DNA of 64,000 bases from Candidatus Caccopulliclostridium gallistercoris (GTDB taxonomy: Bacteria > Bacillota > Clostridia > Christensenellales > UBA1242), in assembly GCA_018713725.1 (NCBI GenBank), contig DVOJ01000015.1, positions 9,402-73,401 on the forward strand, given 5' to 3'. A program made the translations under genes and the position numbers. Within the stretch, counting starts at the first letter, position 1. Each line of letters opens with the position of its first letter. The notes under the pieces are model-generated. The model saw only the letters and a list, made by a program, of their open reading frames with translations, was not told where the DNA came from and did no database searches. Positions 12,886-33,600 of this stretch are shown one piece after another.

Positions 12886-12941
12886 CTTTCCAAAACTAAC
12901 TCATTGCCCCTCTATATAAGGCAGACTTGTTGCATAATAAA

Positions 12942-13816: not shown

Positions 13817-13866
13817 ATCGCTTTACACCTCCTTTTATGATTTTGATAACTTGATCTTAGCAACCC

Positions 13867-13891: not shown

Positions 13892-14278
13892 AGAAAACTT
13901 TTTCAAATTTTTTTAATTCAGAGGCTATAAAAAAGAAAGCCCCAATTTCAGGAGATAAAACATCTCGTAGAAATCAGGGCTTTCCTAATTAAATTTTTAC
14001 TAAATAATATTTTATTTTGAAATGATATTAAAAACAAAATTCTCCTTAAAAATATAAAATTTAATGATATTTTTTTAATTTTTTGCTATTTTTTGTGTAA
14101 TTTTTTCAATTTACACTTTAATTTTACATTATTTTTCATTTAGAGAATTTGAAATAAAACACTATTAAAGTAAAAACTTATCTTATTTTGTCAAATAAAA
14201 AAGCCTTTGTTCCATAAGATAGTTTTATCAATTTTGATACACGCTGGTATCTTATGGTTCAAAGACCTAATTGGAATT

Positions 14279-14499: not shown

Positions 14500-15096
14500 T
14501 TAAAAATTGTGAATGCAACTGATGACTTTTCCAAGAATTTGTACATTGTCTACAATGATGTCTTTATATTCTTTGTTCTCAGGATGTAGTACAATTCTAT
14601 TTCTTTTTTTGAAAAATCTTTTTACGGTTGCTTCTTCATCGATTAGTGCTACAACTATATCTCCATCATCTGCATTCTGACATTTTCGAACTACAAGGAT
14701 ATCTTTGTCTTTTATCCCTGCATCGATCATGCTTTGTCCTTTTGCGTGGAGAAGAAATGTTTCGCCAGTTCCAAAAATATCAGCAGGTAGAGAATAAGTA
14801 CCCTCAATATTTTCAACAGCAAGAATGGGCTGTCCACAAGTAACCGTGCCAAGCAACGGGGCGATAATTGTTCGGTCTGGGTTTAACCTGCGGGAGATTT
14901 TGATCCCACCAAAATCATTCTTCTGAATCTTGCCATCAGCTTCAAGCCTGCCAACATATCTGAAAACACTAGCAAGGTTAGTAAATCTCATTGCTTTCAT
15001 TATTGTTCGATATGATGGTGACTTGCCATTTTGAGTTTGATACTTATTGATAAATTCTAAAAGTTCTGCCAATTTTCTTTCGTTTAAAGTTTTCAT
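14500..15096 (-). CDS. lexA: LexA-family S24 self-cleaving repressor
   Basis: N-terminal wHTH, cleavage-site region VTCGQP, catalytic GQSM (Ser) and VKRF (Lys). ATG at 15096 with a GGAG upstream is preferred over the GTG at 15108. Confidence 0.85.
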   Translation of the reverse strand: MKTLNERKLAELLEFINKYQTQNGKSPSYRTIMKAMRFTNLASVFRYVGRLEADGKIQKNDFGGIKISRRLNPDRTIIAPLLGTVTCGQPILAVENIEGTYSLPADIFGTGETFLLHAKGQSMIDAGIKDKDILVVRKCQNADDGDIVVALIDEEATVKRFFKKRNRIVLHPENKEYKDIIVDNVQILGKVISCIHNF

Positions 15097-15110
15097 ATCT
15101 TTCTCCACAA

Positions 15111-15240: not shown

Positions 15241-15768
15241 TTAAAAATCATATAAAGTAGTCGTATCTGAAACTTTGATATAATATCTTTCAAATAATGA
15301 GGTGTTTTTTATATCTAATTTATAAACACCAATAAATGTAAAACTATCTCCATTCTTTTCAAAAACTGCTTTATAAGCATACTCAAAGGTTTTACCGAGA
15401 TTAGATGGTGGATTTGCTTTATCTCCAACAAAATTTTCTTTAATTCTTCCATCTTTTAAAAAGACATCTTTCCATCCAGCTCGTTCAATTCCATCAAGTG
15501 CAATAATCCACATATAATAAGTATTTGTTAATTTATATGTTGCCTGAACCCACTTTTGTAGATTAGTTCCAATAAGATAGTTTATCAATTTATAATTTTT
15601 ACTTAAAGGAAAAGTATCTCCAGTTTTGATAACTTCATTTCTTTTTGTGTTTTTCATAAAATTATCTTCTTCAGTATCAGGATTTATTTTCTTTTTGCAA
15701 ATTTCACAAACGTCTTCATCTTCTTTTATATAATTTAATTCACATTGTGGACATTTTTTATATTTCAT
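15241..15768 (-). CDS. Zinc-ribbon protein with an unknown C-terminal domain
   Basis: N-terminal CPQC...CEIC. No recognisable catalytic motif. Confidence 0.4.
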   Translation of the reverse strand: MKYKKCPQCELNYIKEDEDVCEICKKKINPDTEEDNFMKNTKRNEVIKTGDTFPLSKNYKLINYLIGTNLQKWVQATYKLTNTYYMWIIALDGIERAGWKDVFLKDGRIKENFVGDKANPPSNLGKTFEYAYKAVFEKNGDSFTFIGVYKLDIKNTSLFERYYIKVSDTTTLYDF

Positions 15769-15790: not shown

Positions 15791-15827
15791 TTTTTCTTTT
15801 ATCTCAAAAAGAGAGGCAATAAGTATT
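15791..15827 (+). repeat. 37-bp perfect direct repeat, copy A
   Basis: TTTTTCTTTTATCTCAAAAAGAGAGGCAATAAGTATT, identical to 30823-30859. Lies immediately 3' of the res stop. Confidence 0.9.
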
Positions 15828-18800
15828 AATTTATGCTTTTCATAACATTAAGTAAATCTTCGTAACTTGTTACATCGTGGTATCGAACTTTACTTGTAGA
15901 TAGTTCATTAAACAGCTTTCTTGCACATTTTATCTTTGCTTGTTCAATTGGTCTAAGTTCAAGTGATTCCATTGTTCCTTTTGTTTCTGCAACAAAATAA
16001 ATATGCTTTATTCCATACCCATCATTGAATGCAATTGCCCAGTCAGGTGCGTAGTTGCCAACAGGGGTAGGTATTTGGAACGATCTTGGAAGCTTTGCGT
16101 AAACACAAACCTCGTCAGCTTTGTCTAGATCTTCAGCAAATCTTCTTTCTACTGAATTTTCAGCAGTTCCATCCGTAAACACATAGTCCTGAACAGCCTT
16201 TTTAGCCCTGAAAGCTTTGTTAAAATCAGCTTTTGTTTGGTTTGCTGTAAATATATCAGTGTCGTATGTTCCGTCCGTTACATTGTAGGTTACATGGTCG
16301 ATTATCATTGTTGCTTTTTGTTCGTTTATAAGTCTAATTACCTTTGAAATAAATTCTTCAGGATTAAGTTTATACATATAGAATTTTGCCGGGCTTATTC
16401 CCTGTAATATCCTTACAATTGTCTTTCTTGTAAGAGTTGTGCCTGCGACGATTTTACCAATTAAATCGTATTTTGTACTATCTGCTCCTGCACTAGTTAT
16501 ACTTTCTGTTCTTGTTTTAGTAGCACCGAACGAATCTCCTCGTTTCACTTGGTTTTCGTCCATAACTCTTCTTTGTTCGCCAATTGTTACTGTGTACTTC
16601 ATCTCTGCAACAAATAGTTTATCATCTATATGTGCAATAGATTTTTTGATAAGTTCTTCGCTGTCAAACTCCACTTTGTATGTGTATTTGTGATTGATAT
16701 AATTCCATAATGTTTGGAACTCTTTCTTTGCAAAGTTGTCGTTGAGTGCATTATCAATAACAGTGGTTTGATTGCCATTTTCAATCATTCCATCAAGTGC
16801 TTTTTCATCAAAGATGCCCTGTACAAGTTTGTGAATGCCTTCAGTATAAGGTGCAAGAATAGCAGGCATTTCTTTGAATGCACCATTTTCTTTGTCTGCA
16901 AAGTAACTTTCAGTAAGCTTATTGTCTTTATCTACATAGCCACTAAATCTAAGATAACTTTGAATGTCAGTTGCAAGTTGTGTGTCAACCTGAATTGTAT
17001 TAGTGCCATCGCTAACAAATTTGCCCTTGAAGTATTCCACAGTTGCTCTTGTAGGTCTATCTGAAAGGTTAGCTTTAATATCCTTTTGAATATCTGCAAC
17101 AAAGTCCTTATAACTATCAGTTGCAACAACTGTAAGCATATTTATTTTGTGGAAGTTGTTTCCAGTGGTAGCACAATAATGTGCATCAGCTCTATCTCCA
17201 AGCATATTGACAGCAATACGAAGCCCACGACCAACTTCTTGTCGTTTTGCAACAGCAGATTCTCCACCAGGCTTCAATGCACAAATTTGGAATACATTTG
17301 GGTTATCCCATCCCTCACGAAGTGCAGAGTGGGAGAATATAAATCTCGTTGGCTCTTCAAAAGACAACAATCTCTCTTTGTTTTTCAAAATTAAATCATA
17401 TGCAGAAATGTCGTCCGAACCTGTTTCTTTGTTATCTTTTGAGTCTATCATTCTGCCTGTTTTCTTATCAACAGAGAAGTAGCCTTTGTGAGTATCTTCA
17501 ACTGCAATACTCTTTAAATATTTAATGTATGGTGTTTCAAATAAGGTCAAATATTCGTTTAATACTTTTACATATTCTTGTTCAAACATTCTTGCGTATT
17601 CGCCTTTTTCGTCAGGCTGATCATAATCTCTATACTTTTTAACCTCATCAATAAAGAATAGGGAAAGGCACTTTATACCTTTGTTATAAAGCATTTCTTC
17701 TTTTTCAAAGTGAGAACGAATTGTTTCTCTTATCTGCACTCTACGAATGTCTTTGTCTGAAATATCTCCAATAACTTCGCCAATCTTAATCTCTATATCA
17801 TTTAAGAATGTAACAGAGTTTGTGAATGGATTGATTTCTTTGATAACATATCCATTTTTGTATTGTTCCATTTCATTGGAAAGGCTATATAAGTTTCTTT
17901 CAACGCCTAATATTCTTGTTTCTCGGTTAATTGACTTGTTGTAGTTAATTTCAAATTCAAGTTTTGCCATTGGTGGTTTGTTTTTAGATAAAACAATGTC
18001 TTGAAGATATAGATATCCATTTGTTCCACGCAGGTTTTTAATTTCAAAACCTTTAACTTGAATTTTCTTAACAAGTTTTTTGTTGTATGCATCCAAAGCA
18101 TCTAGAGAATAGACTAGGTTGTGGTGTTTTCTATGGGTTGCAGAGAAGTTCATATTGAATAGTGGGTTAAACTTTTTAAGTGAGGTTTGGGTTGCCTCTC
18201 CACCAAGTTTTTGTGGCTCGTCAATGATAAGTATTGGTCTTGTCTTTGCCACAACATCAATAGGTCGGCGAGACTGGAATTCGTCAAGCACCATGTCAAT
18301 TCTTCGAGCATCTGCACCACGAGCATTGAAAGCCTGTGCATTGATTATCATTACTTGAATATCACTAGAAGAGGCAAAACTATCTAGTTCAGACAGTCTT
18401 TTGCTGTTGTAAATAAAATATCTTGCTTTCTTGCCATACTGATCCATAAAGTGATCTTCCATCATTTCAAACGACTTTTTGACGCCCTCACGAATAGCGA
18501 TGCTCGGAACAACTATGATAAATTTACTCCAACCATATCTTTGATTGAGTTCAAAAATTGTCTTTATGTAAACATAGGTTTTACCAGTTCCTGTTTCCAT
18601 TTCAATATCAAGCGAGCACCTGCCAAGCCCTCGAACGAGTTCTTCAGACTCTTTGTAGTTGTTATCTTGCTGAATTTTCTTGATGTTTGCAAAAATATCT
18701 GCATCTTCAAGCACGATTTTGGCATTCTCAAAGCCATCGTCATTTATCTCAAATGCACCTGTATCTATCATATCAATCTGAGCCTCGACCTTTTTACGCC

Positions 18801-18918
18801 TAATACCCAAATCTCTTGTATATCTAACCATGTCAAAATAAGGTTGTCCTTTAAACACCTTGCAAATGTTATTTACAGCATCCTGCTGATATGGTTGTGT
18901 TTTAAATTTGAATTTCAT
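15826..18918 (-). CDS. res: Type III restriction enzyme Res subunit (helicase-nuclease)
   Basis: Helicase motifs METGTGKTY, IIDEPQK, FSATH, LREGWDNPNV. C-terminal PD...ExK (APDWAI...VAETKG). ATG at 18918 with a GAGG RBS is preferred. Confidence 0.85.
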   Translation of the reverse strand: MKFKFKTQPYQQDAVNNICKVFKGQPYFDMVRYTRDLGIRRKKVEAQIDMIDTGAFEINDDGFENAKIVLEDADIFANIKKIQQDNNYKESEELVRGLGRCSLDIEMETGTGKTYVYIKTIFELNQRYGWSKFIIVVPSIAIREGVKKSFEMMEDHFMDQYGKKARYFIYNSKRLSELDSFASSSDIQVMIINAQAFNARGADARRIDMVLDEFQSRRPIDVVAKTRPILIIDEPQKLGGEATQTSLKKFNPLFNMNFSATHRKHHNLVYSLDALDAYNKKLVKKIQVKGFEIKNLRGTNGYLYLQDIVLSKNKPPMAKLEFEINYNKSINRETRILGVERNLYSLSNEMEQYKNGYVIKEINPFTNSVTFLNDIEIKIGEVIGDISDKDIRRVQIRETIRSHFEKEEMLYNKGIKCLSLFFIDEVKKYRDYDQPDEKGEYARMFEQEYVKVLNEYLTLFETPYIKYLKSIAVEDTHKGYFSVDKKTGRMIDSKDNKETGSDDISAYDLILKNKERLLSFEEPTRFIFSHSALREGWDNPNVFQICALKPGGESAVAKRQEVGRGLRIAVNMLGDRADAHYCATTGNNFHKINMLTVVATDSYKDFVADIQKDIKANLSDRPTRATVEYFKGKFVSDGTNTIQVDTQLATDIQSYLRFSGYVDKDNKLTESYFADKENGAFKEMPAILAPYTEGIHKLVQGIFDEKALDGMIENGNQTTVIDNALNDNFAKKEFQTLWNYINHKYTYKVEFDSEELIKKSIAHIDDKLFVAEMKYTVTIGEQRRVMDENQVKRGDSFGATKTRTESITSAGADSTKYDLIGKIVAGTTLTRKTIVRILQGISPAKFYMYKLNPEEFISKVIRLINEQKATMIIDHVTYNVTDGTYDTDIFTANQTKADFNKAFRAKKAVQDYVFTDGTAENSVERRFAEDLDKADEVCVYAKLPRSFQIPTPVGNYAPDWAIAFNDGYGIKHIYFVAETKGTMESLELRPIEQAKIKCARKLFNELSTSKVRYHDVTSYEDLLNVMKSIN

Positions 18919-18931
18919 ATATTTTTTCCTC

Positions 18932-20911
18932 TTAAATACCGAGCTTTTCAAATAAAACTTGATTTCTTTTTTTAGCATCATTTAATATTTTGTCATAAGA
19001 TAAAATTTCAAGATATTCATTATTATTCATTCTATAATAACCGAGTCCATCGACTGTTTCAGTCATTCCATATGTTGATATTATTTTACTTTTAAAAGTA
19101 GGAGAGATATCACAAATAACATACATATAAAATTTAGTATTTTCATTTACTTTAATGTATCGTCCATCTTTATCTTTTTTAGTACCAGTCTGAATTTGTG
19201 TTTTATAGTCAATAATTTGATCAATTGGACTATTATATGGAAGATCTTCTCTCATAGGTTTTTTTAATTCAAAAATAACAATATTGTCATAACATGTCCC
19301 ATCATTTTTTGCCTCAGTTAATGCTATACTTCGATCAAAAAACATAATATCAGGACGATCTTCATCCTGCTGATTATTAAACGGAATGTCTGACGAAATA
19401 TAAAAATAATATGATAATTTTTCATCAATTAACCATAAATTTTGTTCATCAAAAGTAATTTTATCATCTGAAGTTTTTTTCATTGGGTATATTAAATTAT
19501 GCATAAAGGACTCTTTAGCATATTTTGAATTATCACTAATAAGCATTCCTTTTTCAAAGAGATCTAAAATAGCTCTTCTATGAATTATATAATCTGCCAG
19601 TCTTGATTTATTTGAATCTGAAATTTTCTCGACCAATGCTTTTATCTTTTCTTCATATTCTTCAATTGAGGTTTGATCAGTAATTGTTTTAACAATTTCA
19701 GTTTTCTCATTATTAATCTCAACTTCAAACTCATTCTTAAGTTTATATAGCTGTTCCTCTAATTTTTCATCACTTAAATTAGACTTAATCCTTTTAAGTT
19801 CATCAGCTTTATACTTTAATAAATGTCTATACTGTGGTGAATGGCAATTAATATAATTTGAAATTCTTTTATTTTTTTGTTCTATTATTGGATCTAAAAA
19901 ATCTTTTAATAATTGCTTAATATATGCACAAATATCATTTAAAATACGCTCCATAGAAATTAATTCCACACCATTAATTATTATGGCCTTTTGTGAAATG
20001 GTTGAAAATTCCAATCTATTGCTATCAACATTTTCATCTAAAAATTTTGAATTAACTACTCCCAAATAATAGCTATTTTCATCTAATTTTAATGACTCAA
20101 TATCACTTATAAAATCTTCTAATTTTATTGTTTTTACACTTCTATTGTTTGCACATAATTCCAAAAAATGTTTATTAATTATAGATCCATCAATCTTTAA
20201 ACTCACTACATTAAACTTTTTATCGAGTATTTGAATATCATCTTCGTTTATTTTATATATTTTAGATTTAAATAAATCATTCAAATTTATTTTTTCTGAA
20301 TCATCTTGAATAATGATTGTTGGACAATTAGAATCTAAAAAATATTTAAGTAAATGCGAAAGTATTTCATTTGCTATTTGATTTAATTTTTTGGGAAAAG
20401 TTTTTTTAAAATCACTTTTCATGTTCATTAAAGTAATAGATGTTTTCAATGATTTATTATTAGAAGAGATAAAATCATTTTCATTTATATTTTTAGTTTC
20501 AGTATTGAACTGAAATTTTCTTTCGAAATAATTATCGTTTTCCAAAAATATACTATGAATATCGACATTATTAAATGCTTTCAACCAAGAGAAACGACCA
20601 ACCCCCTTACCTCCAATGTCGGCTTTATGATCAGTGTCTGATTCCATAAAAGATTTAAAATTATCTTTGTTGAATCCACAGCCATTATCTTCAATATTAA
20701 TTGAATCTATTGGTTCTATTCCATCATTTAGAAATTGTAAATCTCTTATAAATTTAATTGTAATTTTCCCAGAGTAATTCTGATTAATTATTTTTACTTC
20801 ATTAATGGCATGAATAGAGTTTACAATGCTTTCAAATAATGGGATCATTGAGTTATTTGATTGAAGTTGAAAATTTTTGACTCTTCCTTTTAAATTAACA
20901 TTAAAATTCAT
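18932..20911 (-). CDS. GHKL (Bergerat-fold) ATPase with a C-terminal PD-(D/E)XK-like module
   Basis: N box ESIVNSIHA, DNGCGF, GGKGVGRFS. C-terminal RPDIMFFD...IFELKKP. Sits between mod and res. Confidence 0.65.
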   Translation of the reverse strand: MNFNVNLKGRVKNFQLQSNNSMIPLFESIVNSIHAINEVKIINQNYSGKITIKFIRDLQFLNDGIEPIDSINIEDNGCGFNKDNFKSFMESDTDHKADIGGKGVGRFSWLKAFNNVDIHSIFLENDNYFERKFQFNTETKNINENDFISSNNKSLKTSITLMNMKSDFKKTFPKKLNQIANEILSHLLKYFLDSNCPTIIIQDDSEKINLNDLFKSKIYKINEDDIQILDKKFNVVSLKIDGSIINKHFLELCANNRSVKTIKLEDFISDIESLKLDENSYYLGVVNSKFLDENVDSNRLEFSTISQKAIIINGVELISMERILNDICAYIKQLLKDFLDPIIEQKNKRISNYINCHSPQYRHLLKYKADELKRIKSNLSDEKLEEQLYKLKNEFEVEINNEKTEIVKTITDQTSIEEYEEKIKALVEKISDSNKSRLADYIIHRRAILDLFEKGMLISDNSKYAKESFMHNLIYPMKKTSDDKITFDEQNLWLIDEKLSYYFYISSDIPFNNQQDEDRPDIMFFDRSIALTEAKNDGTCYDNIVIFELKKPMREDLPYNSPIDQIIDYKTQIQTGTKKDKDGRYIKVNENTKFYMYVICDISPTFKSKIISTYGMTETVDGLGYYRMNNNEYLEILSYDKILNDAKKRNQVLFEKLGI

Positions 20912-20926: not shown

Positions 20927-22975
20927 TTATATTATTTTTCTTGTAGTTGATGGGGAATAGGTGTCAAAGATTTGGTCAAAGTTTACTGCAACGCTGTCTG
21001 AAGACATTGAGCTGTCACGGAATACTGCATATAGTGGTTGCATTTTGGCAATCTCGGTTACCACTTCATCAGTTAAGTTTTCATCAAAGCAACACACAAG
21101 ATTGCCATCATTTACATTGAATACTTTTTTACCTTTTATATCAAGTGTTTTAATTTCGCTTGAAAGTATAACGCCCATATCTAGCATAACTTGGAACAAC
21201 AAATCTTCAGGAGATCTATCTTCTTTAATATTACTTACCAAGTCAAGCAGATTTGTTTGTTCAGTATCACTAGGGGAATAATATACATCTTTCATATTGC
21301 TTGAATCAAGTTTTAATACACGGAAGCCAATATCAATAGGGCATTTACCAGAACTTTCTCCAATTTTCTTATCTCTCATATTATTGATTGCTTGAATGGT
21401 GTCAGGATTTGAATTTAATGCATCAATAATTTCTTGTTGTCTATTTGTCAATTCTTGACCCGCTAAGTCCATAGCAATTTTTTGTCCTGCACGACGAATG
21501 CGTTCTTTTCCTATTTCACAAATATTTTTATATCCTGCTTTGTAAGCTTCGCTCTTTTCATCGCATTTTTCAGGAAGCTGAACCATGATGAACTTTCTAT
21601 TGCCACCGTCTTCAGCATTTAGTTGCATAACAGCATGAGCAGTTGTTGCAGAGCCAGAGAAAAAGTCTAAAATAGTTGTATTCTTATCATTTTCTACAAT
21701 TCTATTTAATAATTTTTTAATTAAATACAAGGGTTTTGCATAATCAAACAATCTCATATCAAATAGCTCTCTTAATTCCTGAGAACTTCTATCGTAATTA
21801 ATTTCTTTTTCAATCCAAAAATCTTTACTTTTTGTGGTTGAATCTTTTTCAAGATAAGATTTTTCAAAAATATCGTATTCAAAATTATTATTTCTTTTTA
21901 CTTCTCTACAATACAAAAGACTTTTGTCCTTTTCAACTTTTTGTTTACTCCATCTCCATCGCCCATCAGAGCCATCTTCTAATTTAGGTATAATTTCTAT
22001 ATATCCATCTTTTTTAGTTGTAGAAATATCCTTTGTTTGAATATTGTAATAAATAGGGAAATAAAGAGTTGGTGAATCTTCTCTTTTAGAATCTGCACCT
22101 CTTTTTCTTAATCCCATATCCCTATATCGTTTACCAAATTCGTCTGTTTTATTATAAGTTTTTATTGTTTCGTCGTCTAGAGATTCTCCTAAAACTTTTA
22201 CATTGTTAGCATTTTTTGCATATATTGTAACATACTCACCACTTTCAGCAAAGAATTCACTTGATTGTCTTCCTCTTGGATTTGAAAGAATTTTTAAAAT
22301 TGCAATGCGATTTCTATTTCCAAAAATTTCATCACAAATTTTTATTAAATTAGACTGTTCGTTGTCATCTAAACTTATAGCAACGCAACCATCGTCAGTC
22401 AACAAATCTCTTGCAAGTTTTAATCTTGGGTACATCATTGAAAGCCAGTCAGAGTGGAAACGTCCATTGCTTTCGAGATTTTGTACCATACGATTGCCAT
22501 CTTCGTCATAACTTTTGCTATTTTGAAGATACTCATCGCTAGATGAAGCAAAATCATCATTGTAGACAAAATCATTACCAGTGTTATAAGGTGGATCAAT
22601 GTAAATCATTTTGATTTTATTTAGGTATGTTTCTCTGAGAAGTTTTAAAACATCAAGGTTATCTCCCTCAATGTAAAGGTTTTTTGTGTTGTCAAAATCA
22701 ACACTTTCTTCTCGGCAAGGACGAAGTGTTGCATTGATTGGTGAATTAGCAGTTAGAATTGCTTGCTTTTTACCTGCCCAGTTAAGAGTGTATCTCTCAT
22801 CATTTCCATCGACAACAACTTTGCTAAGTTCCTGTTTAAGCAAATCAAAATCAACAAGTTTAGTAACTTGTCCATTTTCATCTTTACCCTCTGTAACACA
22901 GTTAGGGAATAGCTTTGCTATTTTCTCAACATTTTCATCTACCAAGTTTTCACTCTGCATTTTTAATTTATTCAT
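20927..22975 (-). CDS. mod: Type III Mod DNA methyltransferase (beta-class N6A/N4C)
   Basis: Motif IV IYIDPPYNTGNDF precedes motif I LDFFSGSATTAHA. Size is typical of Mod. Confidence 0.9.
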   Translation of the reverse strand: MNKLKMQSENLVDENVEKIAKLFPNCVTEGKDENGQVTKLVDFDLLKQELSKVVVDGNDERYTLNWAGKKQAILTANSPINATLRPCREESVDFDNTKNLYIEGDNLDVLKLLRETYLNKIKMIYIDPPYNTGNDFVYNDDFASSSDEYLQNSKSYDEDGNRMVQNLESNGRFHSDWLSMMYPRLKLARDLLTDDGCVAISLDDNEQSNLIKICDEIFGNRNRIAILKILSNPRGRQSSEFFAESGEYVTIYAKNANNVKVLGESLDDETIKTYNKTDEFGKRYRDMGLRKRGADSKREDSPTLYFPIYYNIQTKDISTTKKDGYIEIIPKLEDGSDGRWRWSKQKVEKDKSLLYCREVKRNNNFEYDIFEKSYLEKDSTTKSKDFWIEKEINYDRSSQELRELFDMRLFDYAKPLYLIKKLLNRIVENDKNTTILDFFSGSATTAHAVMQLNAEDGGNRKFIMVQLPEKCDEKSEAYKAGYKNICEIGKERIRRAGQKIAMDLAGQELTNRQQEIIDALNSNPDTIQAINNMRDKKIGESSGKCPIDIGFRVLKLDSSNMKDVYYSPSDTEQTNLLDLVSNIKEDRSPEDLLFQVMLDMGVILSSEIKTLDIKGKKVFNVNDGNLVCCFDENLTDEVVTEIAKMQPLYAVFRDSSMSSDSVAVNFDQIFDTYSPSTTRKII

Positions 22976-23410
22976 TTATTTATCTCCTTTTTTATTTGTT
23001 GTTATGGCAATTTTAGTCCCACACTTATTACACTTATAACCATATGTGTTATCTCTAAAAACTCTTCCAGTCATTAAATCCTGCAATCCACTTTCAACAA
23101 CACCAAATAACATAGGAATTTGCTTTCCATGTTCATACAAACAATTTAAACAAAACGGTATTTCTTCTCCATCAAAATCTTTCACATCAGCTAGCGTATA
23201 AAATCCAGAATAAATTTTTGCGTTTCTTTTGATATTTGAAATCTCTTCTGATTCCTTTAATTTTTCTTTTAATTCTTTGTTCTCATCTAATAATTCTAAA
23301 TAATCAGTATATAGATCTTTTAATCTATCGGTTAGTTCTACACTTTGCACCACTTCAGGCAAAGCCAATAATTTTCTAAATTTATCTATTTTCCCCATTT
23401 TTACCTCCAA
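22976..23410 (-). CDS. Unknown coiled-coil plus zinc-ribbon protein
   Basis: 144 aa with a charged helical N-terminus and a C-terminal CLNC...CNKC. Its stop abuts the mod start. Confidence 0.4.
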   Translation of the reverse strand: MEVKMGKIDKFRKLLALPEVVQSVELTDRLKDLYTDYLELLDENKELKEKLKESEEISNIKRNAKIYSGFYTLADVKDFDGEEIPFCLNCLYEHGKQIPMLFGVVESGLQDLMTGRVFRDNTYGYKCNKCGTKIAITTNKKGDK

Positions 23411-23429
23411 CGCAATTTTGTTTAATATT

Positions 23430-24224
23430 TTAATACATATTGTTTATAGATATTTTAATTTGATAGGTGGGCGTAACTACAAGTTTTCCTTTCGTTATAA
23501 TTTTTGTGTTAACAACTTTAGGTTTATTAATTTTTTTTATAATAAAATCATTAAGTGGTATTAATAATAGACTTTTTATACCTTTTAGTAAATTAAATTT
23601 TTCCTCATTGCTGTCTTCCACTAATTCTACTATACATCTTTTATCTTGCGGGCTTGTCACTAATGCAACAGCATCTAATCTTTCTATTTTATTGATTACC
23701 TCGTGGCACATTTCCCCAAAATAAATTTCACCTGCTCTATGATTACATAAAGTATCTAAAATATCTCTTCCACATATGCTACATGTTATATTTGAGAATT
23801 TTGCTTCTATACTACTAAAAACTTTGTAAGGATATAATCTTTCAATTTTTTCAAAATAATTAATTAATTCTTTTATTGATTTTGAACTTTCATATTTTGA
23901 ATATAAATCTATAATGTCAATACAATCTTGCAAACAATTCCACGAGCCTCTAAAATTATCTTTTTTAATTTCTTGCAAAAACTTTGAATACTCGTAGATT
24001 AAACTTATATATAATTTAACAACGAATGTTGAGTTTGCAAAAGTTTCGTTATTTTCTTTTATTGTAAAGTTTTTAATACTTTCCAAGGACTGTATAAGTT
24101 TTTTATAATCTTCTTCAATATTGCAAAAATCTAGTTTATATAAAAGCATACAATACTCATCAAGATCTTTTTTTATCTTCTTAAACTCAGATGACTTTAT
24201 ATTTAGTAAAAATTCTTTAATCAT
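23430..24224 (-). CDS. Unknown protein with a Cys/His cluster
   Basis: CSICG-x8-CNH...CHE. The start at 24224 (GAGG RBS, overlaps the upstream stop) is preferred over the tracked 24272. Confidence 0.4.
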   Translation of the reverse strand: MIKEFLLNIKSSEFKKIKKDLDEYCMLLYKLDFCNIEEDYKKLIQSLESIKNFTIKENNETFANSTFVVKLYISLIYEYSKFLQEIKKDNFRGSWNCLQDCIDIIDLYSKYESSKSIKELINYFEKIERLYPYKVFSSIEAKFSNITCSICGRDILDTLCNHRAGEIYFGEMCHEVINKIERLDAVALVTSPQDKRCIVELVEDSNEEKFNLLKGIKSLLLIPLNDFIIKKINKPKVVNTKIITKGKLVVTPTYQIKISINNMY

Positions 24225-24660
24225 CTTCATCCTCATTAAAAAGCTTATTAACATCTTTAAATGTTTTTTCAAAACTTTCTACAGATCCATTGTAATTTAA
24301 TTCTTTTATTTTGCCTTTATTTTTTACTTTAATCTTCAAATTTATATTTTGTTTTGTTTTATCTTTTTTACCAATTTTATCATAAATAAAATTACTGATT
24401 AAGTTAATAACAACAGGCAATAAAAATGTTTCAGCCAAGTATAACACTGGCAACCAAATAGATGCATCATGTAAAGCGATAATGTCAGGATTACTTTCTA
24501 TAAATTGAATTTTTTTATTTTGCTCTCTTGCATACTTATAGAATTCAATAGAATCTTCAGAAAATAAGCACTCATTTGTATTTGAATTATATCTTATTGG
24601 GAAAATATATATTGTATCAGATTCTTTTGCTTTAGAAATCAATTCTTCTTCTTTATTCAT
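24217..24660 (-). CDS. Unknown protein with one predicted TM helix
   Basis: 147 aa with hydrophobic IWLPVLYLAETFLLPVVINLISNFIY and a Lys-rich C-terminal part. Confidence 0.4.
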   Translation of the reverse strand: MNKEEELISKAKESDTIYIFPIRYNSNTNECLFSEDSIEFYKYAREQNKKIQFIESNPDIIALHDASIWLPVLYLAETFLLPVVINLISNFIYDKIGKKDKTKQNINLKIKVKNKGKIKELNYNGSVESFEKTFKDVNKLFNEDEDD

Positions 24661-25296
24661 TTACACCTCCAACTCTTGCAGTTCTTTTTTCATCTGCTTT
24701 ATCTCGTCATTAAGTTTCATTTTTATATTTGGTTGTTTCTCTGCATTCATTATTTTTGTTTGCTTTTCAATTTCACTTTTTTGTTTTTTGATTGCACTCA
24801 TTCTATCAACATATTGTTTAAAATCCTCATCAATTCTGAAAGGGTATAAGGTAAGTTTTGCGATCATTTGTTTGTAGATATTTTCTAGTTTAACACTGCT
24901 TGGCATATCTTCAAGTTCTTCTTCTTGCCAGTCACTTTCAAAAGTTCTGAGTATCTCAATTTTCTCATCGTCTATGATTTTAACTGCAATTATGTATTTA
25001 ACTTTTTCGTTATACTTTAATGTTAAAAGTGTTTGAAAGTTTATGCTTTTATTAAGTGCTTCAATAAACTTTTCAGGAATTTTGTTTGAGTTAAGTTCTA
25101 TATCAAACACATAAATTTCTTTTACATTGTCACTTGATTCCATATTCGTTCTATCAGGAGATAAGACATTAGATAATGTGACTTTTGTGACATTTCCTGC
25201 ATCTGCTTTAACTACTTTATCTGCCTTTATAGTTCTGAATAGTTCAAGCATTTTGAATTGTATATTAACTTGAGTTTTTTCGCTAAATCTAAACAT
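24661..25296 (-). CDS. DUF4391-like protein
   Basis: Size and sequence pattern (EIYVFDIEL...IPEKFIEALNKSINFQTLLTLKY) match my recollection of DUF4391, a family seen beside SNF2 helicases and methylases. Needs HMM confirmation. Confidence 0.45.
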   Translation of the reverse strand: MFRFSEKTQVNIQFKMLELFRTIKADKVVKADAGNVTKVTLSNVLSPDRTNMESSDNVKEIYVFDIELNSNKIPEKFIEALNKSINFQTLLTLKYNEKVKYIIAVKIIDDEKIEILRTFESDWQEEELEDMPSSVKLENIYKQMIAKLTLYPFRIDEDFKQYVDRMSAIKKQKSEIEKQTKIMNAEKQPNIKMKLNDEIKQMKKELQELEV

Positions 25297-25308: not shown

Positions 25309-25971
25309 TTATTTTATTTCAGTAACTAAATATTTAAAATCATACTTATAGTCATTCCATTTGAAATTATACGAATTGTTAAATGTCAGTGAAACATCTC
25401 TCCAAGTTCCGTCCACGCAAGATTTATTGTTCGGTTTATACCATGACAATGGTTTTTTTGCAATAATTTCGTCTTTTTCACTGATGCAGAAGTCTTTAAA
25501 TAAGGTATTTCTACTTTGCTTATTTACTACCCAGTAGTTTTTTTCATTTGTTAACATAATAGCAAAACATTTTACACAAGTTTTTAATTTTTTATTAAAT
25601 TCATAAGCTGTATTATCTTTTTTCTTCAATAATTCTAGTCTATGGACATCCCACAGATAATCAAATCTACCTAAATCAGTTGCACCATGATTTAATAGTT
25701 TGACTCCGTTATATTCGCTACTTTTTGTTTTATATTTTAGTTCTATTGCAATAAAGTTTCCATCTTTATCTAAAACAATGATATCGGTATAAAGTCTTTT
25801 TAGTCTATTATTTTTCAAAGTAGTTGCTGTTGTTAATTCTAATTTAACTTTATAGCTTGGATAATTATCTCTTATAAGCTGTGCCAAATCAAATTGAAAC
25901 TGAGCTTCACTTTCAAAAACATCTTCCTGTTTTGCGAGTAATTCCATTAAATGTTTAATATCGATATCCAT
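25309..25971 (-). CDS. PD-(D/E)XK-like nuclease
   Basis: YTDIIVLDKDGNFIAIELKYK fits D-x(n)-E-x-K. Confidence 0.5.
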   Translation of the reverse strand: MDIDIKHLMELLAKQEDVFESEAQFQFDLAQLIRDNYPSYKVKLELTTATTLKNNRLKRLYTDIIVLDKDGNFIAIELKYKTKSSEYNGVKLLNHGATDLGRFDYLWDVHRLELLKKKDNTAYEFNKKLKTCVKCFAIMLTNEKNYWVVNKQSRNTLFKDFCISEKDEIIAKKPLSWYKPNNKSCVDGTWRDVSLTFNNSYNFKWNDYKYDFKYLVTEIK

Positions 25972-25980: not shown

Positions 25981-28900
25981 TCATTTGACTACCACAAAGG
26001 CTATAAGCTCAAAGTCGTCAAGTCCTTTTATTTTTGTTCCACTAAGCACCATGCTACCTTGCTTGAAAAGTGCGTTTATATCACTTTGCTCTTTAACCTC
26101 GATTATGCTTTCTATGGCTTTCTCTAATAGTTTACTATATTTTGACATATCAAGTCCATCATTTGTTTCTTCGTTAAAGACACTGCAAACATTGTAAAGT
26201 GGTTCTTTTCTTCCTTTGCAGGCAACACGAATTGAGTCAAGGATTTCCTTAACTTCAAGATGATTATTAACTATTTCTCCCTTTTCGTCAACATAAACTA
26301 GGTAGTAAGGGTGCAAGCGATTTTGCCTGTTTATATTCACATTGTTGTTTTGGTTTTTAAGAATGTAGATGACGCCTGGCACAATGCCACGAGAAGCATC
26401 TTTTTCTATGACGCAGTGCATTCCTTTTGGAACTCGCCTAGGCTCTCCATAAGTTTTGATAAACTCAGTTGCATCCATTCTAAATTCGTTTAATCCAAGA
26501 TCGCTTATAGATATACCACTATTTGTATCTTCAAGGTCAATATTTTCGCCCTCACGAAGCTTTTTGATTTGAACTTCACGGTAATCGTCCATTTGGTCAT
26601 CAGGATTTAAAATATTGTCATCAGCAGTTGCTGTTTGATCGACAATTGTCATTCTGCTTTTAACTCTATCAGTAAGGTTAATATACTCATTTAATGGAAG
26701 TGGTGGCCAAAAATTCACTAATTGTATTACTTTGTTTTTGCTACCAATTCTATCAATACGACCAAATCTCTGCACAATTCTAACTGGATTCCAGTGTATA
26801 TCATAATTTATACACATATCGCAGTCCTGCAAGTTTTGTCCCTCTGAAATACAGTCGGTTGCAATCAAAACATCAATGTCTTTGAAACAATCGTCAAACT
26901 CGTGTTTATCAATTTTCCCACTCCAATTGAGTTTAGGATCGTTATAACTTTCAATTTGTCTATGCATCCAACTGAATACTTGATCTCTGTTTTTACTTAT
27001 TGGGCTAAACATTGTAAGTAGGGTGTTAGTTTTCTTTGGACAATGTCTTAGGGATACTTTGTTCGCTTGTCCCTCGATCATTGCTGATTCTATCCCGTAG
27101 GTGTCTTTTAACCACTTATGCAAGTTCTCATAAAGATAATTTGCAGTGTCAGCGAACGCAGAGAAGATCAGGAACTTTCTATTTCCTGCGTTTATAGGAT
27201 TTTTTATTTTTATATCAATGATTTCCTTTAAGGTTTGAAGCTTTAAGTCATATTCAGGTGTGATTTTGCCAAGTTCATTTATAAGATACTCAAGTATCTC
27301 GACATCGTGTTCCATTGCTTTTTGCCAAGATAACCTATCAATATCAGCATATTCGATGTGAATTTCTTTACCTTTATCGGTTTGCACTAGGTTTAGACTG
27401 CCATCTTCATCTTGGTCAAACATTTCATAGTTAAACACCTTTTTAGTTGCATAGGCATCTGGTCGCATTTGTCCTGCATTGTAGTAGGATAATCTTTTAA
27501 GTTCTGCTCGGTTTAGGTCTAGCATTCCAAGCATAGTAAGTCTGAAAGCCTCGACACTTGATTCAAGTCTTTTTAGCAAGTTTACAGTCATTATACGCTT
27601 AATGCCAGAAGTTCTACCACTGCGAGTTAGTCCACTGTGTTTGATTTCAACATCGTATTTTCTTTCATATTTATCTTTTTGACTATCAAGCACGAAGTCA
27701 AATAGTCCATAGACTGCCATACTTAATGATTTTATTGATTGATAAATCTCTTTATATTGTGGCACATCTTTCCTTTTGGTAAGTTCAGGAGAACAAGAGA
27801 CTGGTGAAAGTCTATCAGGGAACTTGCCAATATCGTTCATATTGTAATATTTGGCAATATTCTTACGACTTCTTGCAATAGTAACACTATCAAGTAGAAT
27901 TTTAAAATCTATGCTTAACGCATCGATTAAATCTTTGTTTTTTCGTTCATTTGGTGGTCGTTTGCTCCAATCATTGAATACTGCTTGAGCTTGTCTAAAA
28001 ATTGTTGCGATGTTGCTTTTTGTGTCCAAGCTATTCTCAAATGCATCGTAATCTTGGCTATATGCAATTGCAAGTTGGTTTTTAAGGTCGTTATACCTAT
28101 TGTTTACAGGAGTAGCAGAAAGCATCAAAACTTTTGTTTTGACACCTGCTTTAATTACATGATTGATAAGGAAGTCATATCTTGTTTCTTTGTCTTTAAC
28201 AGGGTTATTGTTTCTAAAATTATGGCTTTCATCAATCACAACTAGGTCATAGTTTCCCCAGTTAACAAGCTTTAAATCTCTGCCATTATGTGCTGTCCCG
28301 ACACGACCTAAGTCTGTGTGATATAGCACCTCATATCTAATTCTATCCTCATAGAAAATATTTGTGGTATCATTACTGCTACCACAGTATTGTGTCCAGT
28401 TATCACTTAATCTCTTTGGACATAACACCAATATGCTTTTGTTTCTAAGCGAATAATAGGCAATAACAGCAAGTGCAGTAAAGGTTTTACCAAGACCAAC
28501 ACTGTCTGCTAGAATACAGCCATTGTGTTTTTCTAGTTTGTTTATTATGCTAATAACTCCATCCTTTTGGAAGTCATACAACATATTCCAAATTTTAGTG
28601 TCCTTAAAGCCTGTTGCCTCGTTAGGCATATTGTCTTCACTAATATCATCAAGAAATTCGCTAAAAATGTTATATAAAATTATGTAATAGATAAACTCAG
28701 GACTATTTTCTTGATAGGCACTGCTTATCATCTCCACCACATTGTCAGTTATTTCTTCAACTTTCGATTTGTCGTTCCAAACCTCGTCAAACATTGAAAA
28801 TAGGAATTTGCTTTGTTCTGCAAAGTCCGTTTTGCTTATTGCTGTAAATATACTATTTCCTTGTTGATAACCTAAGTCTGTAGTTGTAAAACCGTTGACT

Positions 28901-29337
28901 GGATTGTATGTAACCGAAGAACCATCTTGATGATCAATACCAATATAGTTTGGAATAGAAGAGTTTGTTATGTTACTTTTAAATTTAACTTTTTGTCTTA
29001 CCCAGTTGGCACATTCTTTTGCGATGGCTTTAAGTGTCATCTCATTCCTGAGTTTAATTTCAAACTCGCTACCATAAAGGCTGTTTTCTCGGTTTTGTTT
29101 TGGGATATAAAATTCTCGTTTTTCCTTTTTAACTCCCTCTGCGATTGTATCCTTTGTGAATGTTGGAGAAGTAAACAAAAATTTAAGTTCTTCAATTTGG
29201 CTTAGTTCTTCCTTTAATTCTTTAAATGCATACATTGAAAAACAAGAAGAGGCTATTCTTACCTTTGAGCCTTTTCTTAACTCACTTTTTAAATCATCTC
29301 CAAGCAGTTTCGTTCTATTGTCTATATTTTCAAACAT
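25981..29337 (-). CDS. SNF2-family helicase
   Basis: Motifs ILADSVGLGKTFTA, VVIDESHNFRN, LSATPVNN, QRFGRIDRIGS. Has ~240-aa N-terminal and ~250-aa C-terminal extensions of unknown function. Confidence 0.9.
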   Translation of the reverse strand: MFENIDNRTKLLGDDLKSELRKGSKVRIASSCFSMYAFKELKEELSQIEELKFLFTSPTFTKDTIAEGVKKEKREFYIPKQNRENSLYGSEFEIKLRNEMTLKAIAKECANWVRQKVKFKSNITNSSIPNYIGIDHQDGSSVTYNPVNGFTTTDLGYQQGNSIFTAISKTDFAEQSKFLFSMFDEVWNDKSKVEEITDNVVEMISSAYQENSPEFIYYIILYNIFSEFLDDISEDNMPNEATGFKDTKIWNMLYDFQKDGVISIINKLEKHNGCILADSVGLGKTFTALAVIAYYSLRNKSILVLCPKRLSDNWTQYCGSSNDTTNIFYEDRIRYEVLYHTDLGRVGTAHNGRDLKLVNWGNYDLVVIDESHNFRNNNPVKDKETRYDFLINHVIKAGVKTKVLMLSATPVNNRYNDLKNQLAIAYSQDYDAFENSLDTKSNIATIFRQAQAVFNDWSKRPPNERKNKDLIDALSIDFKILLDSVTIARSRKNIAKYYNMNDIGKFPDRLSPVSCSPELTKRKDVPQYKEIYQSIKSLSMAVYGLFDFVLDSQKDKYERKYDVEIKHSGLTRSGRTSGIKRIMTVNLLKRLESSVEAFRLTMLGMLDLNRAELKRLSYYNAGQMRPDAYATKKVFNYEMFDQDEDGSLNLVQTDKGKEIHIEYADIDRLSWQKAMEHDVEILEYLINELGKITPEYDLKLQTLKEIIDIKIKNPINAGNRKFLIFSAFADTANYLYENLHKWLKDTYGIESAMIEGQANKVSLRHCPKKTNTLLTMFSPISKNRDQVFSWMHRQIESYNDPKLNWSGKIDKHEFDDCFKDIDVLIATDCISEGQNLQDCDMCINYDIHWNPVRIVQRFGRIDRIGSKNKVIQLVNFWPPLPLNEYINLTDRVKSRMTIVDQTATADDNILNPDDQMDDYREVQIKKLREGENIDLEDTNSGISISDLGLNEFRMDATEFIKTYGEPRRVPKGMHCVIEKDASRGIVPGVIYILKNQNNNVNINRQNRLHPYYLVYVDEKGEIVNNHLEVKEILDSIRVACKGRKEPLYNVCSVFNEETNDGLDMSKYSKLLEKAIESIIEVKEQSDINALFKQGSMVLSGTKIKGLDDFELIAFVVVK

Positions 29338-31966: not shown

Positions 31967-32221
31967 TCATTTTATTTTTTGTATATTTTGTATAATCTTT
32001 TTCGTCTGAACTAGTTGACATCAGTATTGTATCCGTTTATAATAGTATTGTTTTTGATTGATATATCAAAAATTGGCACATAGGCACAGGAATAGGCACA
32101 AACGATAAAATTTGATAAAGCCAAAATTGTGTTTCAAGTGTTAAAAAATATGCATAAAAGCACTATATATTGTGTTTTTAGATAAAATTAGGTCGAGTTG
32201 ACTAGATTTTAGAACCCCATC

Positions 32222-32266
32222 CTGATAAGGTGGGGGTCGGTGGTTCGAGTCCACTCAATCCTACCA
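32222..32266 (+). repeat. tRNA-Ile(GAU) 3' fragment = att core copy 1 (ICE/IME junction)
   Basis: Anticodon loop CTGATAA, stem GGTGG, variable GGGTC, T-arm GGTGG-TTCGAGT-CCACT, acceptor CAATCCT, ACCA. 45 nt with 1 mismatch versus 44958-45002. Confidence 0.85.
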
Positions 32267-32272
32267 CTAAAA

Positions 32273-32295
32273 CTCCGATAAATTCGGGGTTTTTA
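32273..32295 (+). terminator. Intrinsic terminator after the tRNA fragment
   Basis: CTCCGA-TAAAT-TCGGGG followed by TTTTT. Confidence 0.5.
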
Positions 32296-32317
32296 TTATA
32301 ATTTTATAACTAATTTT

Positions 32318-32468
32318 TTGACATCGTTTAATGCGTTTTTTGACATCAAATATTTTTCTATTAAATTTTACCAATAAAAATGACCGAAAGTGTGAAATTT
32401 TTACTTTCGGTCTAATTCTATCTAAAACTATCTAAAAATGTGTTATTTGATGTCAAAATTGATGTCAA
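32318..32468. repeat. Arm-type site cluster (TTGACATCAA / TTGATGTCAA)
   Basis: Copies at 32318-32325, 32340-32349 (forward) and 32447-32456, 32459-32468 (reverse). One more lies left of the core at 32015-32023. Confidence 0.6.
32372..32412 (-). terminator. Intrinsic terminator of the DUF1848 gene
   Basis: GACCGAAAGT-N11-ACTTTCGGTC followed by a T-rich run on the minus strand. Confidence 0.6.
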
Positions 32469-32532
32469 ACTTTACATATAAATTTTTTTATTTTATTTAT
32501 ACATATTTTTCTTTTAAAAGTTTTTCATAGCA

Positions 32533-33468
32533 TTACTTGTACTCAAATTCAAGCTCGGTTTTCCTTTCGTAAATAGTGCCGACAGATTTATCTCTCATTG
32601 ACTTTTGAGAAGATTTTTTTGCATAACAATATCTGCAGTCGTGAAAGCAAGTGTCATACTGCCCTATGTCAACCGACGGCATACAAAGGCAATTTTTGCG
32701 TTGCCCATCAAGTTTGTTATTTTTGCGTTTGACTTGAAGACTCAAATCTTTATATTTTTCAGTTAAAAGTTTCTCGAAAATTTCTCCATCTATGCACTTA
32801 CTTGGAACAATGTCATATTTTGAGTAGTCATTTTCGGCACACGCCTCAATTTGAATTCCATTTTCTTTGGAAATTTTAGAAATGGCAGACAAAATTTTGT
32901 CTTTTTGCTGTTCATTTGGTTTATGCAAATTTTTATCACAACCTTTATAACTTTCAATCAAAAAACTGATTTTGCAATGTTTAGTGTATCCGTTTAATGC
33001 CTTCGCCAAGTGTTCAAATCTTTCAATATGCCAATTTTCATCTATGCCTTCTGTCACTAATATTGGGTCATAACGCCAGATGACAGGACAAAATTTTGAA
33101 AGCGTTTTAAAACTTTCAATTCGTTCTTCAAGCGGCGGAAGATTTGCTTCAATTTCTTTTGGATAGGCATTGAGAGTGTAAAGAAAATAATATTTATAGT
33201 CACTAAGTTTATAAAGTTTGTTAAGCATAGGTTTTGGGTTCTTTGTCCAAAAAACAATCCCTTCAATATTTCCAGATGTTTCAACTTTCTTTTCGCCAAG
33301 CAAATTTATTTCTATATTTTCAATTTTTAATGGTTCGAGTGCGATTTTTGCAATTTTTTCGTGTGCAATGGGATTTGGCACCAAAACAAAACCTTGGTCT
33401 AACTGCTTAAAAAACCAATCACTATAAAACGCAGGAATATCGGTACGTCTTGAAACACTTAAAATCAT
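32533..33468 (-). CDS. DUF1848-family protein
   Basis: N-terminus MILSVSRRTDIPAFYSDWF matches my recollection of DUF1848. Has a C-terminal Cys cluster (CLCMP...CFHDCRYC). Confidence 0.55.
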   Translation of the reverse strand: MILSVSRRTDIPAFYSDWFFKQLDQGFVLVPNPIAHEKIAKIALEPLKIENIEINLLGEKKVETSGNIEGIVFWTKNPKPMLNKLYKLSDYKYYFLYTLNAYPKEIEANLPPLEERIESFKTLSKFCPVIWRYDPILVTEGIDENWHIERFEHLAKALNGYTKHCKISFLIESYKGCDKNLHKPNEQQKDKILSAISKISKENGIQIEACAENDYSKYDIVPSKCIDGEIFEKLLTEKYKDLSLQVKRKNNKLDGQRKNCLCMPSVDIGQYDTCFHDCRYCYAKKSSQKSMRDKSVGTIYERKTELEFEYK

Positions 33469-33600
33469 ATTTTATCCTTTTTGTTAATTAAATTATTATT
33501 GCAAGGAGCAATATGCTTGCTTGCAAGGGCATTTGCGACGCTGTCCAAAAATAATGAGTGGAAGTCACACATTTTGTGTGAGTTTCTAAACTAAAATGCG

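Follow-up and report, generated by a model that had tools for sequence, protein, structure and literature searches.

Kiwa, the membrane-effector variants of CBASS and retrons, and the lactococcal Fliodhais (PMC11381338) are two-gene defence systems in which a soluble protein is paired with a small one in the membrane. Genes embedded in multi-gene defence operons proved antiviral in seven of nine candidates tested, and the tested embedded cargo lay in Hma, BREX, DISARM or Type I restriction-modification (R-M) operons (Payne et al., bioRxiv 10.1101/2024.01.29.577857). Here we analysed three genes, A, B and C, which occupy positions 22976-24660 on the minus strand of a 64,000-nt stretch of contig DVOJ01000015.1 from Candidatus Caccopulliclostridium gallistercoris (the whole stretch is called the window throughout). 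They lie between a DUF4391 gene and the methyltransferase gene mod of a Type III R-M operon, and an earlier reading of the letters alone had proposed them as one new defence module. We found that A and B form an autonomous, horizontally mobile two-gene cassette, which is independent of C and of the helicase/methylase scaffold around it.

Comparison with described systems

The A+B cassette resembles the embedded cassettes of Payne et al. in its position between helicase, methylase and restriction core genes, and the junctions of its operon likewise hold varied cargo (RhuM, HEPN genes and a nuclease-like gene). Embedded systems including Septu have most of their copies outside the host operon (bioRxiv 10.1101/2024.01.29.577857), and so does A+B. 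The host is different, being an SNF2/DUF4391/Type III R-M operon and not Hma, BREX, DISARM or Type I. Neither A nor B matches any PADLOC 2.0 model, including the 145 candidates taken from bioRxiv 10.1101/2024.01.29.577857.

The second comparison is with PrrC and RloC in Type I R-M operons. A and B are likewise extra genes in a restriction operon, co-transcribed with it and plausibly a second line of defence, and sister operons of the window carry HEPN genes at the junction between mod and the restriction subunit gene res. None of the PrrC/RloC domains (HEPN anticodon nuclease, ABC-type ATPase) was found in A, B or C. PrrC occurs almost exclusively in Type I R-M operons (bioRxiv 10.1101/2024.01.29.577857), whereas A+B is mostly located away from R-M operons, and this distribution argues against a dependence of A+B on the host R-M complex, unlike PrrC/RloC.

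With Kiwa, CBASS, retrons and Fliodhais the cassette shares its make-up, a small protein with a hydrophobic segment and a larger cytosolic protein, tightly coupled and found in defence islands. It differs from them in that no PADLOC model resembles A or B in sequence, the fold of B is unmatched and the membrane role of A is a predicted one. The last group to be compared are the SEC-C proteins (PF02810, at the C-terminus of SecA and in YchJ). Most B relatives have a canonical SEC-C motif at their C-terminus (see below) and the internal CxxC-x8-CxH site of B has a similar spacing, but B of the window itself lacks SEC-C. Rugutis, an antiphage protein of lactococci, is a single 359-aa protein with an N-terminal SEC-C motif (PMC11381338). 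Judged by this description only, A+B differs in comprising two genes and in having SEC-C at the C-terminus or not at all; tblastn with B matched no Lactococcus plasmid.

A and B travel together and C travels apart

A word-indexed homology search yielded few relatives of A (4 clusters) and B (5 clusters) and more of C (46 clusters). In a Christensenellales metagenome-assembled genome (MAG; L001) a homologue of A stands directly upstream of B (58 % and 48 % identity, respectively) beside AbiEii, and in L002 both proteins have paired homologues with 35 % identity; both loci are free of the scaffold and of C. The reverse arrangement was seen in L003-5, L009-11, L071 and L072, where the order is SNF2, DUF4391, C, mod, with neither A nor B. 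C also precedes a distantly related Type III mod/res pair in L073, where SNF2 and DUF4391 are missing, follows a Type I hsdR in L006-8, where it overlaps an unknown 292-aa gene, and stands alone in unrelated contexts in L082-86. The 292-aa gene of L006 was considered as a relative of B and rejected. The hidden Markov model (HMM) of the C family had no match in the 49 genome loci with A+B described below. All three genes occur together in L012-15, in the order DUF4391, RhuM, A, B, C, mod, and on one 1960-bp contig.

The sequence-only reading had made its claim of a three-gene module depend on the conservation of the trio as a unit. A and B travel without C, C travels without A and B, and the three stay together only in the close relatives L012-L015 and on the short contig; the claim of the trio therefore fails and a claim about the A+B pair replaces it. 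The description of the module as a membrane protein with zinc proteins is fair for A and B. That A+B is an autonomous pair, with C separate from it, is on these observations very likely.

The operons themselves are mosaics. Between the window and L012 the protein identity is 99 % for SNF2, 95 % for DUF4391, 88 % for A, 78 % for B, 71 % for C, 92 % for mod and 100 % for a 659-aa gene located between mod and res. Synonymous divergence (dS) between the two is 0.13 for SNF2, 0.33 for A, 0.78 for B, 1.24 for C and 0.20 for mod. In L015, A and B are identical to those of L012, but C and mod are 91 % and 65 % identical to the window. From the mosaic of identities and dS we conclude that A+B, C and mod each recombine as a unit of their own, at a junction that accepts cargo.

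Other junctions of the related operons behave in the same way. Between helicase and DUF4391 there is either nothing, a 220-aa nuclease-like gene (missing in L003, L009 and L012) or, as in L071, a 398-aa gene in its place. Between DUF4391 and C there is nothing, A+B or RhuM+A+B, and between mod and res there is nothing, HEPN genes (Apea, AbiU2, Csm6-like) or the 659-aa gene. The differing cargo confirms the earlier view of the trio's place as a variable position within a conserved defence operon. The junctions evidently act as cargo slots, and 'guilt by embedding' is thereby extended to SNF2/DUF4391/Type III operons.

One could also take A, B and C for accessory subunits of the SNF2/DUF4391/Type III machine which function only there. 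Translational coupling links the whole series DUF4391, A, B, C and mod, which fits such a role, and so does the retention of the trio in the closest relatives, L012-L015. However, the scaffolds of L003-5, L009-11, L071 and L072 contain C without A+B, the A+B pair is found without scaffold or C in 49 genome loci and on many plasmids, C occurs alone, and A+B, C and mod recombine independently. The distribution has already largely refuted this explanation and we regard it as extremely improbable.

Size and spread of the A+B family

We searched 1.84 billion representative proteins (clusters at 50 % identity) with a profile of B and obtained 1147 clusters at E<=1e-3, 711 of them at E<=1e-10. The median length among the best 149 B relatives is 286 aa, and the names they carry in databases are 'hypothetical protein', 'SEC-C domain-containing protein', 'SecC motif-containing protein' and 'zinc chelation protein SecC'. 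B of the window carries all family-invariant residues and scores 252 bits against the B HMM; A of the window matches the A-family HMM with E 2e-42.

A scan of GTDB species genomes with a 12-sequence B alignment yielded 49 loci; no loci were found in the scan with a 5-sequence alignment. The loci belong to Bacillota (Clostridia, and Bacilli such as Sporosarcina, Ureibacillus and Heyndrickxia), Bacteroidota, Proteobacteria (Burkholderiaceae, Aliidiomarina, Ramlibacter and delta-proteobacteria), Opitutaceae (Verrucomicrobia) and one archaeal MAG (Woesearchaeota). The pairing could be tested in the 46 loci with DNA present upstream of B, and in 45 of them the ORF immediately before B is co-directional with it and matches the A-family HMM. 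The distance between the two genes ranges from -53 to +17 nt and is mostly -4, +7 or +9 nt. Frameshifted MAG copies account for two of the 45 pairs, and the single unpaired locus (L066) is a fragment of B. A is also found upstream of B in L001, L002, L016 and L017-19, and in each replicon examined of Klebsiella, Acinetobacter and Escherichia coli. Across the family, A+B nearly always occurs without the helicase/methylase scaffold.

Several copies show a deviating organisation. In L060 (Desulfobacterales MAG, 4200-4980) a different open reading frame (ORF) with four transmembrane segments precedes B, and of the A family only the 36 C-terminal aa remain, encoded after this ORF in another frame. 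The ORF appears to have taken the place of the N-terminal and hydrophobic portion of A, which could reflect a domain swap or an assembly frameshift. In the 497-aa protein P0108 the B body is present twice, in tandem, within a single chain. The 295-aa protein P0084 is A-like in its first 86 aa and B-like in its C-terminal two-thirds, and may have arisen by natural fusion or be artefactual.

By tblastn, B relatives were located on 209 plasmids, mainly of Enterobacter (89), Citrobacter (39), Klebsiella (32) and Escherichia (24), and 181 of the 209 are conjugative. The pair is also carried by an 8.8-kb plasmid, by non-mobilisable plasmids and by chromosomal islands. Its enterobacterial version (WP_016239970.1 / WP_016239971.1) is present in 24 out of 5426 complete E. 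coli genomes. One pair was identified in a haloarchaeal pleolipovirus, Halorubrum virus Humcor2 (A-like protein with E 2.4e-7, B-like protein with E 3.9e-33). There the genes (L087, 2150-3558) lie on the strand opposite to the structural genes and adjoin the Rep gene, and they may serve the virus as a cassette for superinfection exclusion or addiction. We rejected a phage-borne nature of A+B, with only 4 matches in IMG/VR, mostly at contig ends.

Protein B

Eight residues of B are invariant in 110 family members (W97, S140, C150, C153, C162, H164, Y170 and G172) and ten more are near-invariant (L100, Q101, E130, Y133, P134, F138, G167, V191, P194 and K197). The motif C150-x2-C153-x8-C162-x-H164 belongs to the invariant set, and its four ligand-type residues probably form a zinc site. 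Of the zinc-like cluster noted earlier in this protein the CxxC-x8-CxH part thus stands, while the 'CHE' proposed together with it is not conserved.

Structure prediction for B by AlphaFold2 with the 110-sequence alignment gave a confident model (pLDDT 94.5, pTM 0.90); with a 5-sequence alignment the pLDDT reached 48 only. The model consists of a six-helix N-domain (1-131) and a beta domain (138-257) with a zinc knuckle. The structural comparison that had been suggested for the three proteins was run for B, and with Foldseek neither the PDB (best E 0.5) nor BFVD (best E 0.09) contained a match at E<=1e-3. In the PDB search the N-domain bore a vague likeness to TPR, below significance. The beta region with the zinc knuckle had weak BFVD matches to proteins named 'prohead serine protease' (probability 0.98, E 0.09, TM ~0.2), which we did not rely on because H164 is most simply a zinc ligand. 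The zinc knuckle also matches phrog_16951, a PHROG family without known function, over 37 aa (E 6e-5), and B has otherwise no match in Pfam, NCBIfam, PHROGs or PADLOC.

The canonical SEC-C motif is found at the C-terminus of 84 of the 110 B relatives. It makes up only a tail of about 25 aa, and the 240-aa body of B is unrelated to SecA or YchJ. In sequence and profile searches of the PDB with B, only the SEC-C tail was matched (SecA). The PADLOC models which B relatives match (E2, E1-E2 and PDC-S12) align only to this tail as well. B of the window has no match to PF02810 (CxC-x8-C[CH]), and in its clade beta strands replace the SEC-C tail.

Protein A

In the family alignment, A begins with a soluble domain of 60-90 aa, which is followed by a hydrophobic stretch of about 26 residues with the consensus DIWxPxIWxASxVLLPxxINLVSxYI, including two near-invariant prolines (P71 and P82). 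A Lys-rich basic/acidic linker (KGREKEE) and a conserved C-terminal domain of about 50 aa complete the protein. The Kyte-Doolittle maximum over 19 residues is 1.94 for A of the window, 32 of the 36 members of the family have a value of 1.6 or above, and the segment is probably a transmembrane helix or a membrane-inserted hairpin. We found no match to A in Pfam, NCBIfam, PHROGs or PADLOC, and none in the PDB with the single sequence and the family profile.

The tail of B and the probable membrane location of A bring up the question of a transfer or housekeeping function for mobile elements, such as entry exclusion or a secretion-linked role of SEC-C, with no part in immunity. The SEC-C motif of SecA binds SecB and ribosomes. 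The frequent SEC-C tail with its SecA matches, the probably membrane-bound A and the location mostly on conjugative plasmids and integrative conjugative elements (ICEs) would all agree with such a function. It is at odds with the finding that the pair also resides on plasmids that cannot be mobilised and, next to Gabija, AbiE and R-M genes, in islands of the chromosome, and with its rare and patchy occurrence in E. coli. Moreover, the tail is dispensable in the clade of the window, and the tail recurs in defence models of PADLOC, namely the small ubiquitin-conjugation-like 'E2' models and PDC-S12. We therefore consider a transfer or housekeeping function to be quite improbable.

Genomic neighbours and the proposed defence function

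A+B is operonic with Type III R-M genes in the window and in L012-15. In other loci, too, it is closely spaced and co-directional with defence genes. In L037 and L038 it is part of a co-directional series consisting of an SNF2-like gene, a gene for a 1050-aa TaqI-like N6-methylase protein, A, B, GajA and GajB, and in L016 the order is A, B, OLD/GajA-like nuclease. The pair stands beside AbiEii in L001 and L070, and beside a Type IIG R-M gene and a UvrD-like helicase within a serine-recombinase element in L017-19. Type I R-M genes and SMODS are further neighbours. As a descriptive summary we counted 140 immediate neighbours from 51 loci: the commonest families are serine recombinases (8), GajA (4, with UvrD-type partners), SMODS (2) and Type I S subunits (2), and integrases and transposases are also among them.

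These neighbourhoods and the slot behaviour described above match 'guilt by embedding', and we therefore read A+B as an autonomous conflict cassette. In our estimate the chances are about even that it functions on its own as a conflict system, for abortive infection or defence. B would then be a cytosolic zinc-binding sensor or regulator and A its membrane-acting partner, anchored in or on the membrane by the one conserved hydrophobic segment. We have less confidence in these specific sensor and effector roles than in the defence function as such. In the window the pair would be co-expressed with the restriction operon without depending on the restriction system.

Several points weigh against the defence function. 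Many of the neighbours are mobile-element genes, with which an addiction module or a plasmid function fits equally well, and the defence association of the neighbours consists of descriptive counts only. Library scans revealed no recognisable effector or catalytic domain in A or B, and the literature searched (on DUF4391, SEC-C and antiphage topics) contains nothing on the pair. Hydropathy is the sole basis for placing A in the membrane. Finally, a mechanism that depends on the SEC-C tail would not apply to B of the window, which has no such tail.

Instead of defending the cell, A+B might stabilise mobile elements as a toxin-antitoxin-like addiction module, with an effect on phages being secondary. 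In that case either A would damage the membrane as the toxin and B would neutralise it, or the roles would be exchanged. The tight overlap of the two genes, the small size of A with its hydrophobic segment, and the carriage on conjugative plasmids (181 of 209), an 8.8-kb plasmid, ICEs, serine-recombinase elements and a small archaeal virus genome are all expected from such a module. Nevertheless, A and B are larger and more conserved than typical membrane toxin/antitoxin pairs, no DNA-binding autoregulatory domain (helix-turn-helix or ribbon-helix-helix) was detected in either, and in the window, L037 and L038 the pair lies inside defence operons without a separate intergenic promoter region. 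We find this explanation unlikely. Many toxin-antitoxin systems also defend, and the addiction and defence explanations are not exclusive.

The most far-reaching version of the defence function, to which we give a low probability, is that A+B is an unrecognised immune system of bacteria, archaea and an archaeal virus with a new sensor-effector mechanism. B would sense infection and trigger A to arrest or kill the cell, and the SEC-C tail that is usual in B could dock it on ribosomes, SecB or anionic membrane.

What is new here are the proteins A, B and C, absent from family libraries, PADLOC, solved structures and the literature searched; the kind of system, a small cassette of a membrane and a cytosolic protein embedded in a defence operon, is already known. 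Should A+B prove to be a defence system, the catalogued systems would be joined by a family of more than 1100 clusters without homology to them, which spans several bacterial phyla, archaea and clinically relevant plasmids of Enterobacterales and has a sensor without a detectable structural relative. The natural E. coli pair makes A+B directly testable with coliphages. The relevant unit for study is the A+B pair and not the trio, and C is best studied together with mod.

Gene C

C has an N-terminal helical or coiled-coil half followed by a CxxC...CxxC zinc ribbon, whose cysteines (C83-x2-C86...C123-x2-C126) are invariant in 31 C sequences. The family (46 clusters) is highly conserved, with an identity of at least 51 % throughout. 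No match to C was obtained in Pfam, NCBIfam, PHROGs, PADLOC or the PDB with the single sequence and the family profile.

The start of a Type III mod directly adjoins C or overlaps with it in at least 8 loci. The mod genes are of three kinds and the operons of two types, and this adjacency with three kinds of mod suggests a functional link to mod. C is probably a small zinc-ribbon accessory or regulator of mod, coupled to it in this lineage. It counts against this assignment that the role of C is a guess from its position. C could also be an independent single-gene embedded cargo, for defence or anti-defence, and no partner of mod. Its solitary occurrence in unrelated contexts (L082-L086) and its place after Type I hsdR with the 292-aa gene are in favour of independent cargo, while the repeated junction with the starts of three kinds of Type III mod is against it, and we take it as a possible, somewhat doubtful alternative.

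Gene boundaries and integrity

The ATG of A abuts the stop codon of DUF4391, and a GGAGG is located within the 3' end of DUF4391. The ATG of B at 24224 overlaps the stop of A (24219-24217) by 8 nt. An alternative ATG of B is present at 24230 and the mechanical ORF starts with TTG at 24272, but we placed the start at 24224 (264 aa) because homologues begin with MIKEF or MIKTF. B and C are separated by 31 nt containing GGAGG. The mechanical ORF of C begins with TTG at 23410 and encodes 144 aa; we placed its start at ATG 23398 (140 aa) because all 46 homologue clusters begin with MGK and GGAGG precedes this codon. The TAA of C abuts the mod ATG at 22975.

The dN/dS ratios against the relative L012 are 0.157 for A, 0.169 for B and 0.167 for C (0.137-0.167 overall for C), and full-length homologues were found for each of the three. 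Because of this purifying selection and the full-length homologues we consider A, B and C to be real genes and not chance ORFs. The possibility that the trio represents fragments of a decayed larger gene was ruled out by the dN/dS values and the intact homologues.

Much of the sequence-only reading is upheld by these data. It had described three unknown genes between DUF4391 and mod, which we confirmed as intact genes of the minus strand, and their translational coupling, seen in the 8-nt overlap of A and B at 24217-24224 and in the C stop abutting the mod start. Its length of 147 aa for A is correct and that of about 265 aa for B is close to the 264 aa found, while its 144 aa for C has to be shortened to 140 aa. 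The single hydrophobic segment of A followed by a Lys-rich tail agrees with the Kyte-Doolittle profile, the zinc ribbon of C was recovered as invariant, and the view of the three as unknown genes was borne out in Pfam, NCBIfam, PHROGs and PADLOC.

Host operon and mobile element

The trio is part of one co-directional array on the minus strand, running from about 31.4 kb down to 15.2 kb (Table 1). Its 5' part consists of a YpsA-like gene, a WYL regulator, an 81-aa ORF, the SNF2-family helicase, the 220-aa gene and DUF4391; A, B, C, mod, the 659-aa GHKL-like gene, res and a 175-aa gene make up the 3' part. With Mod and Res in one operon (PF01555, PF04851, PF19778) the scaffold is a Type III R-M system by definition. 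It is not Hma: the match of the helicase to HmaA is weak (E 1.9e-23 against 1.2e-105 for 'HKD+Snf2'), the best match of the methylase is MTase_III and the 659-aa ATPase-like gene has no PADLOC match. A terminator-like hairpin lies after the 175-aa gene. In the scan for promoters and terminators the counts were equal to the shuffled expectation.

Table 1. Coordinates of the genes and other features discussed, as positions in the window
Feature	Position	Strand	Size	Remarks
TraG/VirD4-type coupling protein	8992-11172			ICE marker
MobL relaxase	11169-12389			ICE marker
LexA-like S24 peptidase/repressor gene	14500-15108	-		after the operon
Terminator-like hairpin	15222-15205			after the 175-aa gene
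175-aa gene	15241-15768	-	175 aa	after res
res, Type III restriction subunit	15826-18981	-	1051 aa	ResIII + RE_endonuc; PADLOC REase_III E 3.6e-291
659-aa gene	18932-20911	-	659 aa	variable mod/res junction; weak HATPase_c_3 match
mod, Type III methyltransferase	20927-22975	-		directly downstream of C; PF01555; PADLOC MTase_III E 7.5e-216
Gene C	22976-23398	-	140 aa	separate zinc-ribbon family
Gene B	23430-24224	-	264 aa	large uncharacterised family labelled only 'SEC-C domain-containing'
Gene A	24217-24660	-	147 aa	first gene of the A+B cassette
DUF4391 gene	24661-25296	-		directly upstream of A; PF14335 E 9e-26
220-aa gene	25309-25971	-	220 aa	variable helicase/DUF4391 junction; weak PADLOC SduA/DUF4263 match E 6e-4
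SNF2-family helicase	25981-29337	-	1118 aa	SNF2-rel_dom + Helicase_C; PADLOC 'HKD+Snf2' E 1.2e-105
tRNA-Ile	32195-32262			ICE marker
DUF1848 gene	32533-33468			listed among the ICE markers
Tyrosine integrase	34357-35688			ICE marker
MobL relaxase	36333-37532			ICE marker

The defence operon is cargo of an ICE, an assignment we made because a TraG-type coupling protein, MobL relaxases, a tyrosine integrase and tRNA-Ile are present. The markers are located in the regions 1-14000 and 32000-38000 of the window and include also a 1511-aa surface-type protein.

Two further genes of the operon have nuclease-like features. The 220-aa gene contains a PD-(D/E)xK-like motif (DIIVLDKDGNFIAIELKYK) besides its weak match to the Shedu nuclease SduA/DUF4263, and may be another embedded single-gene defence candidate. 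The 659-aa gene has a weak N-terminal GHKL ATPase signature and a PD-(D/E)xK-like motif near the C-terminus (DIMFFDR...IFELKKP).

At the ends of the array there are genes that may act as regulators of the island. The LexA-like gene after the operon has a homologue in the same place in L009-L010, the 175-aa gene after res encodes an N-terminal CxxC...CxxC motif, and the WYL regulator and the YpsA (SLOG) gene stand upstream of the helicase, likewise in L012. In L003-L005 and L009-L011 a divergent small serine recombinase gene of about 201 aa is located just upstream of the SNF2 helicase (~5075-5680, minus strand); no such gene is present at the corresponding place in the window. Small serine recombinases have been reported as markers of defence loci (PMC13552941), which the recombinase of the sister operons matches.

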